From an uncultured Bacilli bacterium (lineage in GTDB: Bacteria; Bacillota_I; Bacilli_A; RF39; UBA660), in the NCBI GenBank assembly GCA_934085565.1, contig CAKOHG010000003.1, positions 112,247 through 176,246 on the forward strand: DNA of 64,000 nt, in the 5' to 3' direction. The number at the start of each line of letters is the position of its first letter. Positions within the stretch are counted from its first letter, which is position 1. Positions 52,750 to 53,868 of this stretch are shown here, in pieces. Both the position numbers and the translations under genes were made by a program. Below the pieces are notes generated by a model, which was given only the letters and a program-made list of their open reading frames with translations, ran no database searches and was not told the origin of the DNA.

Positions 52750-53868
52750 ATGAAAGAAGAAAATGTTGCAAAAATATTAAAAAAGATAAGAGAAAGTAAA
52801 AATTTAACACAAGATGAAGTGGCTAGTAAACTTAGTCTTGGAAGAAACGCTATCGTGAGAATCGAATCAGGTAAAAGAAAAGTAAGCGCTAGTGAACTAA
52901 GTCAATTTGAAAAGTTATATAATATTGATCTAGAAGATTATGTTGGAACTTCTAAAAAACAAGAGATTAAAGGTATTATCTTGGCTGGTGGCACTGGTAC
53001 GAGACTTTATCCTATAACAGAAGCTACCAGCAAACAGCTTGTTCCTGTTTATGATAAACCTATGATTTTTTATCCTTTAAGTGTTTTAATGGAAGCTAAT
53101 ATAAGAGATATTTTAATTATTACAACGAAAGAAGATCAAGAAAACTTTAAAAGACTTCTAGGGGATGGTACTCAATTTGGTATTCATTTATCTTATATAG
53201 TGCAGCCTAAACCAAATGGTCTTGCGGAAGCTTTTATTTTAGGAGAAGAGTTTATTGGTGATGCTCCTTGTGCTATGATTTTAGGAGATAACATTTATTT
53301 TGGTAATGGTTTGGAAAAAGAACTTTCTAAAGCCATTAATAATGCCATATCAGGAGATGCTACTATTTTTGGATATAAAGTAAAAGACCCTGAAAGATTT
53401 GGTATTATGGAAATAGATGAGTACAACAATGTCTTATCTGTTGAAGAAAAACCATTGCATCCTAAAAGTGATTATGCTATCACGGGGTTATATTTCTATC
53501 CCAAAGGAGTTTCATCTATAGCTAAAATGGTAAAACCAAGTCAAAGAGGAGAACTTGAAATAACGAGTTTAAATGATTTATATTTAAAACAGAATAAATT
53601 AAAAGCAAGATTACTTGGTGACGGTTATACTTGGTTTGATACAGGAACTTTTGAATCTTTATTAGATGCCTCTAATATGATAAGGACAATTGAAAATAAC
53701 AAAGACACATTAATTTGTAGTCCTGAAATAATTGGCTTAAATCACAAGTGGTTATCTTTAGAAGAATTTTCTAAAAGAGCAATTTTATTAAATAAAAATA
53801 AATATGGTCATTGTTTAATGAAGATAGCCGAGAAAGAAATAAAAAAAGAACGTACCAATAAAAACTAA
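52750..53868 (+). CDS. rfbA: Glucose-1-phosphate thymidylyltransferase (RmlA/RfbA) with an N-terminal XRE-type HTH domain fused in frame
   Basis: aa 1-65: [28 protein letters not shown] (HTH_3). From aa 75: [41 protein letters not shown] (RmlA N-terminus), with no Met at the junction (EIKGIIL). Confidence 0.75.
   Translation: [372 protein letters not shown]

Follow-up and report, generated by a model that had tools for sequence, protein, structure and literature searches.

An XRE-type helix–turn–helix domain fused to RmlA in uncultured Bacilli: a candidate trigger enzyme with a promoter palindrome, and a decayed copy of the system

The fusion gene described here lies in a window of 64,000 nucleotides (64 kb; G+C content of 28.6%) of contig CAKOHG010000003.1, from the assembly of an uncultured Bacilli bacterium (GCA_934085565.1). 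It encodes a helix–turn–helix (HTH) domain of the XRE family joined in frame to RmlA, the glucose-1-phosphate thymidylyltransferase that converts deoxythymidine triphosphate (dTTP) and glucose-1-phosphate to deoxythymidine diphosphate (dTDP)-glucose in the first step toward dTDP-L-rhamnose. In related genomes the fusion heads the rml operon, whose promoter is overlapped by a conserved palindrome. What is new is the proposal of HTH–RmlA as a trigger enzyme, an enzyme and a regulator in one protein, with a concrete candidate operator; the locus in the window is itself a decayed example. The gene is composed of the following parts.

52750..53868, forward strand: HTH–RmlA fusion gene, 372 codons and a stop codon in a single uninterrupted frame
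52756..52944, forward strand: five-helix HTH of the XRE/Cro–C1 type, residues 3–65 (Pfam HTH_3, residues 10–63)
52945..52968, forward strand: flexible linker, residues 66–73 (ending in GTSKKQEI), of low model confidence and variable across the family
52969..53829, forward strand: RmlA (glucose-1-phosphate thymidylyltransferase) domain, residues 74–360

The fusion protein and its two domains

A sequence-only reading of the window had described an XRE/Cro-type HTH fused in frame to a complete RmlA, with no internal methionine or ribosome-binding site at the junction, and each part of this description is borne out. The 372-residue frame contains neither a stop codon nor a frameshift, and both domain models score above their cut-offs. 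Pfam HTH_3 (PF01381) matches residues 10–63 with 46.9 bits (cut-off of 23; E-value of 2.8e-12), and the NTP_transferase match spans residues 74–311 (E-value of 2.1e-70). The NCBIfam equivalog TIGR01207 (rmlA, short form) gives 405 bits (cut-off of 360.65), with residues 74–360 covering model positions 1–285/286, and the C-terminal helix runs on past the RmlA domain to residue 372. At the junction, KKQEI is followed directly by K74; the codon preceding K74 is ATT, and neither ATG, GTG or TTG nor a Shine–Dalgarno sequence can be read ahead of K74 in the window. A conserved internal start or Shine–Dalgarno sequence at this position was ruled out because the junction codon differs between family members (ATT, ATA, GTA, GTT, ATG, TTT, TTC, TTA and GCT).

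The fusion is genuine and not an assembly error: ENA and Logan assemblies contain the identical 372-residue protein on 15 or more contigs, and the same architecture recurs in more than 120 clusters. The possibility of a frameshift, which the sequence-only reading had wanted settled with raw reads, is thereby answered indirectly. Three of the contigs come from three different samples, and the protein also has an NCBI record. In a homology search, the HTH plus NTP_transferase architecture that the sequence-only reading had proposed to look for is present in nearly all of the best 120 clusters (64–95% identity, 353–392 residues). The frame is open throughout an alignment of 45 family members, in which the linker varies in both length and sequence. 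The few public-database names that are given read plain 'glucose-1-phosphate thymidylyltransferase'. With the HTH alone (residues 1–73) as query, the search yielded three fragments of this protein and nothing else. A 50%-level cluster search with residues 1–120 returned ~4–10 representatives that extend across the junction, mostly fragments, the remaining matches being RmlA N-termini or multi-HTH proteins; this shows that the fusion family is a narrow clade and is otherwise uninformative on its size.

From the family alignment, AlphaFold2 predicts two independent, confident domains and a low-confidence linker (mean predicted local distance difference test score (pLDDT) of 85). The HTH helices comprise residues 3–16, 21–28, 32–39, 47–57 and 62–65, with a pLDDT of 80–92 over residues 11–60. 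The score is ~55 in the linker, with values below 50 at residues 67–69, and ~90 over most of the length of the RmlA domain. Foldseek comparison with the PDB returned RmlA structures only (target-normalised TM-score of 0.88–0.90, E-value of ~1e-37, 50–56% identity). The fold, the catalytic residues and this ~50–56% identity are shared with the RmlA/RfbA proteins of Escherichia coli (1H5R), P. aeruginosa (1FXO) and A. thermoaerophilus (4HO9). The solved RmlAs that were matched are all ~290–305 residues long and none has an N-terminal domain; unlike them, the fusion carries a 73-residue HTH and linker ahead of the GGxGTRL loop.

The RmlA domain is 54–56% identical to E. coli RmlA (1H5R; E-value of 6e-105), and R85, K95, D180, K234 and D297 align with R16, K26, D111, K163 and D226 of the E. 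coli enzyme. Among the 45 family members, K95, D180, K234 and D297 are invariant and R85 is at least 90% conserved. Because these five checked catalytic residues are intact, the enzyme half looks fully catalytically competent. In the same alignment, T20, Q21, E39 and E49 of the HTH are invariant and R32, A34, G41, R43 and K44 are at least 90% conserved, so that the canonical XRE signature LTQEEVA...GRDAIIRIEKGxRK is retained. Among solved structures, the HTH is closest to small XRE proteins; 2MEZ ranks best, and the second, ImmR of ICEBs1 (7T8I; E-value of 1.8e-4), is the nearest solved bacterial repressor. Compared with the gene of a second genome of the same species (L004; 98% identical), the window gene has 32 synonymous and 7 non-synonymous codon differences, of which 6 synonymous and 0 non-synonymous fall in the HTH part. 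As synonymous differences predominate, both halves are under purifying selection.

The rml operon and its promoter palindrome in relatives

Ten relatives with the fusion, selected by protein similarity, were read. Four of these (L005, L006, L007 and L066, from metagenome-assembled genomes (MAGs) labelled Tenericutes or Bacilli) are, with L004 of the window's species, the fusion-bearing loci among the 80 best RmlA loci of a one-genome-per-species scan; the other fusion loci, L085–L088, L209 and L210, were obtained through their proteins. The fusion lies within an rml operon in all ten, with HTH–rmlA first, followed by rmlC and rmlD. rmlB is present in eight of the operons and was not detected in L006 or in L210, whose contig ends there. 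rmlCD begins at the end of the fusion gene or no more than ~30 nt from it, and it lies directly downstream of the fusion in P0002 (82% identical), the nearest relative outside the species. The genes upstream of the operon are unrelated among the relatives (flippase, GT2, DegT aminotransferase, DUF6273 and LytR), and in several of them the operon is embedded in glycosyltransferase/flippase loci. rmlC and rmlD often form one fused protein of 478–510 residues right after HTH–rmlA, at the following positions.

L085, 9097–10533: RmlC–RmlD fusion after HTH–rmlA
L086, 9142–10584: RmlC–RmlD fusion after HTH–rmlA
L087, 9100–10548: RmlC–RmlD fusion after HTH–rmlA
L088, 9103–10554: RmlC–RmlD fusion after HTH–rmlA
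L209, 7100–8629: RmlC–RmlD fusion after HTH–rmlA
L210, 2056–3588: RmlC–RmlD fusion after HTH–rmlA

The operons of L085–L088, L209 and L210 thus hold two different gene fusions; a published survey reported RmlC–RmlD fusions as rare, at ~1% of hits (bioRxiv 10.1101/854612). L007 contains tandem paralogues (9006–11077), in which a plain rmlA (9060–9926) preceded by the palindrome and promoter heads the operon and is followed by HTH–rmlA (9980–11077), rmlC, rmlD and rmlB. The fused copy in L007 could be mainly a regulator.

The upstream regions of the ten loci share only a palindrome, an extended −10 box (TGnTAT(T/A)AT), the ribosome-binding site and the ATG. The palindrome is 19 bp long, ATGTTG(C/A)NTTTT(G/T)CAACAT, with a flanking A-run and T-run; its canonical form, as in L087/L209-type members, is ATGTTGCATTTTGCAACAT, and in L085–L088 it lies 49 nt upstream of the ATG. 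The left arm holds a −35-like hexamer (TTGACT or TTGCAT), and the right arm falls within the 17-nt spacer. A palindrome over the −35 hexamer and spacer is the classical site for a repressor that excludes RNA polymerase.

The association between palindrome and fusion was examined in both directions. In the forward direction, each of the eight fusion loci first examined (17–21 kb per locus) holds a single copy of the strict pattern WGTTGMNTWWTKCAACWT, always at the operon promoter, and none of 80 other loci (~1.4 Mb), ~75 of which are unfused rmlA loci, has it. L209 and L210 carry the palindrome too, so that it is present in 10/10 relatives. In the reverse direction, metagenome contigs were scanned blind for the palindrome alone (AATGTTGMNTTTTKCAACATT), which returned 120 loci. 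An open reading frame (ORF) with an HTH of the same clade begins within ~35 nt downstream (mostly ~30 nt) in 40 of these, with E-values against the hidden Markov model (HMM) of the clade of mostly 1e-25 to 1e-36. The 40 comprise 16 HTH–RmlA fusions, 23 stand-alone XREs and one ORF cut by the contig end. The HTH clade and the palindrome are thus inherited together in two unrelated gene contexts, a co-inheritance that a cognate repressor–operator pair predicts. In L094 (59–1537), an rmlC–rmlD pair at a contig end starts ~43 nt from the palindrome and runs on the opposite strand; none of the other loci shows this layout.

The stand-alone XREs that have the same palindrome (114–127 residues) share 52–56% identity with the fused HTH along all five helices of the domain, including the GRDAI(I/L)RIEKG helix. 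They end in a tail of ~47 residues, which the fusions do not have. No rml genes were found near the stand-alone XRE loci, which rules them out as a split version of the rml operon. At L096, L103, L107, L112, L133, L152, L154 and other metagenome loci, the XRE, which is putatively auto-regulated, opens a three-gene module, in which it is followed by a Peptidase_M78 (ImmA/IrrE)–Fic protein of ~460 residues and a GPGGGLYT-repeat protein of ~145 residues. The module looks like a mobile or defence-type cassette. Because the stand-alone XRE has the M78–Fic neighbour and the same promoter–operator cassette, a plausible origin suggests itself, in which a repressor of the mobile-element type was captured together with its promoter–operator DNA in front of rmlA.

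A neighbour-joining tree of RmlA domains, calculated without support values, unites 23 fusions and seven unfused RmlAs in one clade. The unfused members all come from MAGs of Bacilli, Tenericutes, Firmicutes or Erysipelotrichaceae, and upstream of these seven neither an HTH remnant (HMM search in three frames) nor a palindrome was found. This patchy distribution would fit a single fusion event and later losses. Unfused 'Rosetta-stone' neighbours of RmlA in L024 (Clostridium sp. AM22-11AC) and L052 (Ruminococcus sp. JE7B6) were rejected as a spurious join: the tblastn match starts at query residue 20–23, yet the upstream ORFs are hexapeptide acetyltransferases.

The trigger-enzyme reading and its alternatives

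A conserved fusion with intact catalytic residues co-occurs with a palindrome that overlaps the promoter of its operon. The reading that we favour, with a probability of roughly 0.6, is that HTH–RmlA is a bifunctional trigger enzyme, an active RmlA that is also the auto-repressor of the rml operon promoter. The C-terminal ~300 residues would make dTDP-glucose, and the N-terminal XRE HTH would act as a sequence-specific repressor binding ATGTTG(C/A)-N5-(G/T)CAACAT. When bound, it would block RNA polymerase at the promoter of HTH–rmlA, rmlC/rmlD and rmlB and so exert negative feedback on the whole pathway. The RmlA oligomer may replace the lost ~47-residue tail and pair two HTHs on the half-sites, and dTTP, dTDP-glucose or dTDP-rhamnose in the active or allosteric site of RmlA may tune DNA binding, by analogy with BirA, NadR and RbkR. 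DNA binding, repression, dimerisation through RmlA and ligand control are thus what we infer from the comparisons. A fuller version is tentative and rather doubtful: an RmlA tetramer with paired XREs would be switched on and off its operator by dTDP-sugars, having arisen from an ImmR-like mobile-element repressor captured, with its promoter and operator, by rmlA in uncultured gut Bacilli of small genome. If it were true, the end product dTDP-rhamnose would control its pathway both allosterically and transcriptionally through one protein, and the synthesis of nucleotide sugars and cell-envelope glycans would gain its first trigger enzyme.

The copy in the window departs from the operons of its relatives, and its promoter region retains the following elements.

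52700..52718, forward strand: operator remnant ATGTTGCATTTTTAAACAA, with the left arm ATGTTGC intact (52700–52706), 50 nt upstream of the ATG
52703..52731, forward strand: putative promoter, −35 TTGCAT (52703–52708), 17-nt spacer, −10 TATTAT (52726–52731)
52741..52745, forward strand: ribosome-binding site GGTGA, 4 nt before the ATG, aligned with GGAGG/GGGTG of the relatives
53887..56141, forward strand: replacement DNA where relatives carry rmlC/rmlD and rmlB (content assigned with Pfam)

The remnant is in register with the palindromes of the relatives in an 11-locus alignment, and L004 carries the same degenerate form. The promoter, which a simple consensus scan did not list, is predicted from homology; it aligns by column with TTG(A/C)NT, 17 nt and TGnTAT(T/A)AT of the relatives. 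A second imperfect palindrome, TTTAAACAAAATA-A-TATATTATTTAAA (52710–52736, forward strand; 11/13 complementary), lies over the spacer and −10 box; the right arm that decayed from the ancestral operator forms part of it. An A-to-G change in L004 raises its complementarity to 12/13. Chance could account for it in DNA this rich in A and T, or it could be a binding site that has shifted.

Downstream of the gene, the replacement DNA contains a 103-residue ORF with a weak Recombinase match, an RDD-family membrane protein and an IS30-like transposase (55095–56141; HTH_38 and rve), which suggests that a rearrangement removed the rest of the rml operon. A sister lineage (P0125; seven contigs, with L211/L212 3001–3906) has 86% nucleotide identity to window positions 52432–53655. 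Its homology stops at codon 302, beside a transposase of the IS200/IS605 type (Y1_Tnp); the otherwise invariant T20 is replaced by Ile, and the same degenerate operator is present. Because rmlCD and rmlB are missing nearby and the right operator arm has decayed, the window gene is probably an orphan under weak repression or none, and probably continues to provide dTDP-glucose.

Several observations weigh against the trigger-enzyme reading. We infer DNA binding by the HTH solely from its co-occurrence with the palindrome. The palindrome by itself is not diagnostic, as an HTH of this clade is missing downstream in 74 of the 120 loci from the blind scan. Seven unfused RmlAs lie inside the fusion clade, and the HTH is therefore dispensable for RmlA function. 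In the window, the right arm (TAAACAA, 52712–52718) is degenerate compared with GCAACAT; the remnant is the single best consensus match on either strand of the window (16/18), although a match with up to three mismatches is not significant alone. The copy has no pathway partners within the 64 kb: a tblastn search with the E. coli proteins (E ≤ 1e-5) found no rmlB, rmlC or rmlD and one match for RmlA, which agrees with the absence of rmlBCD noted from the sequence alone. In the sister lineage the gene is a pseudogene (TGG to TGA at W295), so that at least one branch does without the orphan. In the window, the regulatory circuit may have ceased to function. A final point, the capacity of the palindrome to fold as a hairpin, belongs to the main rival explanation.

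According to that rival, the palindrome is an intrinsic, possibly bidirectional, terminator or insulator of the upstream gene, and the HTH has another target or none. The A-run, 7-bp stem and T-run do fold at −7.6 to −10.3 kcal/mol, with a z-score of about −3.3 against shuffled sequences, and the symmetric changes in the arms (TTGC..GCAA compared with TTGA..TCAA, and AGTTGC..GCAACT in L085) are what a hairpin would also produce. A terminator, however, needs pairing only, whereas here the arm sequence itself is retained (GTTG/CAAC invariant) behind unrelated upstream genes and among proteins of 65–75% identity. The palindrome is never found before the unfused rmlA genes of the ~75 loci, it accompanies the HTH clade even where the HTH is a stand-alone gene in a wholly different context, and it contains the −35 hexamer at a fixed distance of 17 nt from the TGnTATNAT box. 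Three features favour recognition by a protein, namely the conserved arm sequence, the strict linkage of the palindrome to the HTH clade and the promoter that it contains, which leaves a pure terminator unlikely; the palindrome may serve both roles. A little less probable still is that the HTH is an appendage that does not bind DNA, such as a relic, a solubility or oligomerisation tag, or a module for protein–protein interaction, with an ImmA-like protease as one conceivable partner; the protein would then be no more than an RmlA. Its dispensability for catalysis in the seven unfused RmlAs and the pairing of its stand-alone relatives with the Peptidase_M78 (ImmA/IrrE)–Fic protein would fit such a role. 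The invariance of the canonical XRE residues in helices 2–3 and the absence of non-synonymous changes in the HTH within the species, beside 6 synonymous ones, argue otherwise, and an appendage would leave unexplained the strict co-inheritance with a palindrome of the right size and position.

Two further alternatives fare worse. The sequence-only reading had proposed a one-component regulator of the adjacent polysaccharide locus; the fusion gene does lie on the same strand, 330 nt downstream of the block formed by the polysaccharide locus (40863–49043) and a gene for a 1061-residue pilin-like protein (49233–52418), either of which could be considered as a target, and the embedding of the rml operon of several relatives in glycosyltransferase/flippase loci could be cited in its favour. 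The palindromic operators looked for in 40637–40862 and 49044–49232 did not materialise, however: the best match there is 12/18, a score reached at hundreds of positions in the window, and allowing up to three mismatches reveals no further operator-like site in the rest of it. Each relative has one operator in its locus, at the rml promoter, and between the window and L004 the outer flanks with most of the glycosyltransferase/flippase locus differ while HTH–rmlA stays. A regulatory role thus remains the natural reading of the architecture, but the comparative evidence redirects it from the polysaccharide locus, which is a very improbable target, to the gene's own promoter. The word 'moonlighting', used in the same proposal, captures the regulatory idea and is not quite apt, because both functions occupy dedicated domains. 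Least credible of all is that the domains are made mostly as separate proteins, through internal initiation or behind an assembly or sequencing frameshift. A methionine precedes K74 in about one-quarter of members, and in L087 a GGAG lies ~12 nt upstream of that ATG; against this, the window has ATT without a Shine–Dalgarno sequence, other members have TTT, TTC, TTA or GCT, and the open frame recurs in all the clusters and contigs described above.

To our knowledge, the known enzyme/repressor chimeras (BirA, NadR, PutA and RbkR) all belong to vitamin, cofactor or amino-acid metabolism. NadR (HTH, NMN adenylyltransferase and ribosylnicotinamide kinase) and BirA (HTH and biotin ligase) resemble HTH–RmlA in having an N-terminal HTH on a nucleotidyl-transferring pathway enzyme and an operator on the pathway promoter, which for HTH–RmlA holds at the level of the family (10/10 loci). 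The DNA-binding domain of NadR is also of the XRE/HTH_3 type. Unlike HTH–RmlA, they have unrelated enzyme folds and pathways, and their control by co-repressors is proven, whereas it is conjectural here. Closer in the manner of its discovery is RbkR, an archaeal winged helix–turn–helix fused to riboflavin kinase, likewise recognized as a chimeric enzyme with a conserved palindrome and a patchy distribution. The chimera is the only orthologue in many genomes, the palindrome lies upstream of pathway genes, and the patchy distribution includes secondary loss of the DNA-binding domain (PMC5397151, which also summarises the trigger-enzyme concept). RbkR differs in its MarR-type winged helix, its enzyme family, its archaeal hosts and its experimental validation. 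HTH–RmlA is like the ImmR/ImmA modules (ICEBs1 ImmR) in that the nearest natural relatives of its HTH are XREs with the same operator and an M78–Fic partner; it is unlike them in that RmlA replaces the C-terminal tail of the stand-alone proteins and the window has no M78.

Among the RmlA/RfbA proteins themselves, the gene of the relatives has the usual setting of an rmlA-C-D-B operon, unlike the window copy. A survey of 21,964 genomes catalogued the rml-pathway fusions RmlC–RmlD, RmlA–RmlC, RmlA–RmlB and RmlA–WecD; it contains no HTH–RmlA fusion, and the word 'helix' is absent from it (bioRxiv 10.1101/854612). The catalogued fusions likewise lie within the dTDP-rhamnose pathway, and RmlC–RmlD adjoins HTH–rmlA in several relatives, but they join enzyme to enzyme. 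No published description of the HTH–RmlA architecture was found in the literature. With a repressor borne on RmlA, the trigger-enzyme principle would reach the provision of activated sugars for capsule and cell-wall polysaccharides. The family belongs to uncultured gut Bacilli of high AT content (MAG labels Tenericutes, Bacilli and Firmicutes), and it offers a way into their regulation, which is almost unknown. Because the allosteric site of RmlA is well studied, the fusion is an attractive system for following how a ligand state is passed to a tethered DNA-binding domain, and the operator ATGTTG(C/A)N5(G/T)CAACAT makes the regulatory idea directly testable.

Neighbourhood of the window gene

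Near the gene Rfam detects nothing, its sole match in the window being a tRNA at 36402–36475, and tblastn found no M78 homologue in the window (nothing better than E = 1.1). The polysaccharide locus upstream (40863–49043) encodes, in order, Bac_transf, GT4, a hexapeptide acetyltransferase, GT2, two unassigned ORFs, GT2 and a flippase. Similarity between the window and L004 is ~95–98% in a block around the gene (~48750–54750) and falls to background ~4 kb upstream and ~2 kb downstream of the gene start. This pattern indicates that the flanks have been replaced at the level of strains, and with them most of the upstream glycosyltransferase/flippase locus. The 1061-residue protein at 49233–52418 (forward strand), between the polysaccharide locus and a DUF1294 gene, carries a prepilin-type methylation motif (GFTLIELISVV...) at its N terminus and Ig-like/Y_Y_Y repeats after it, and far exceeds the size of an ordinary pilin or pseudopilin.

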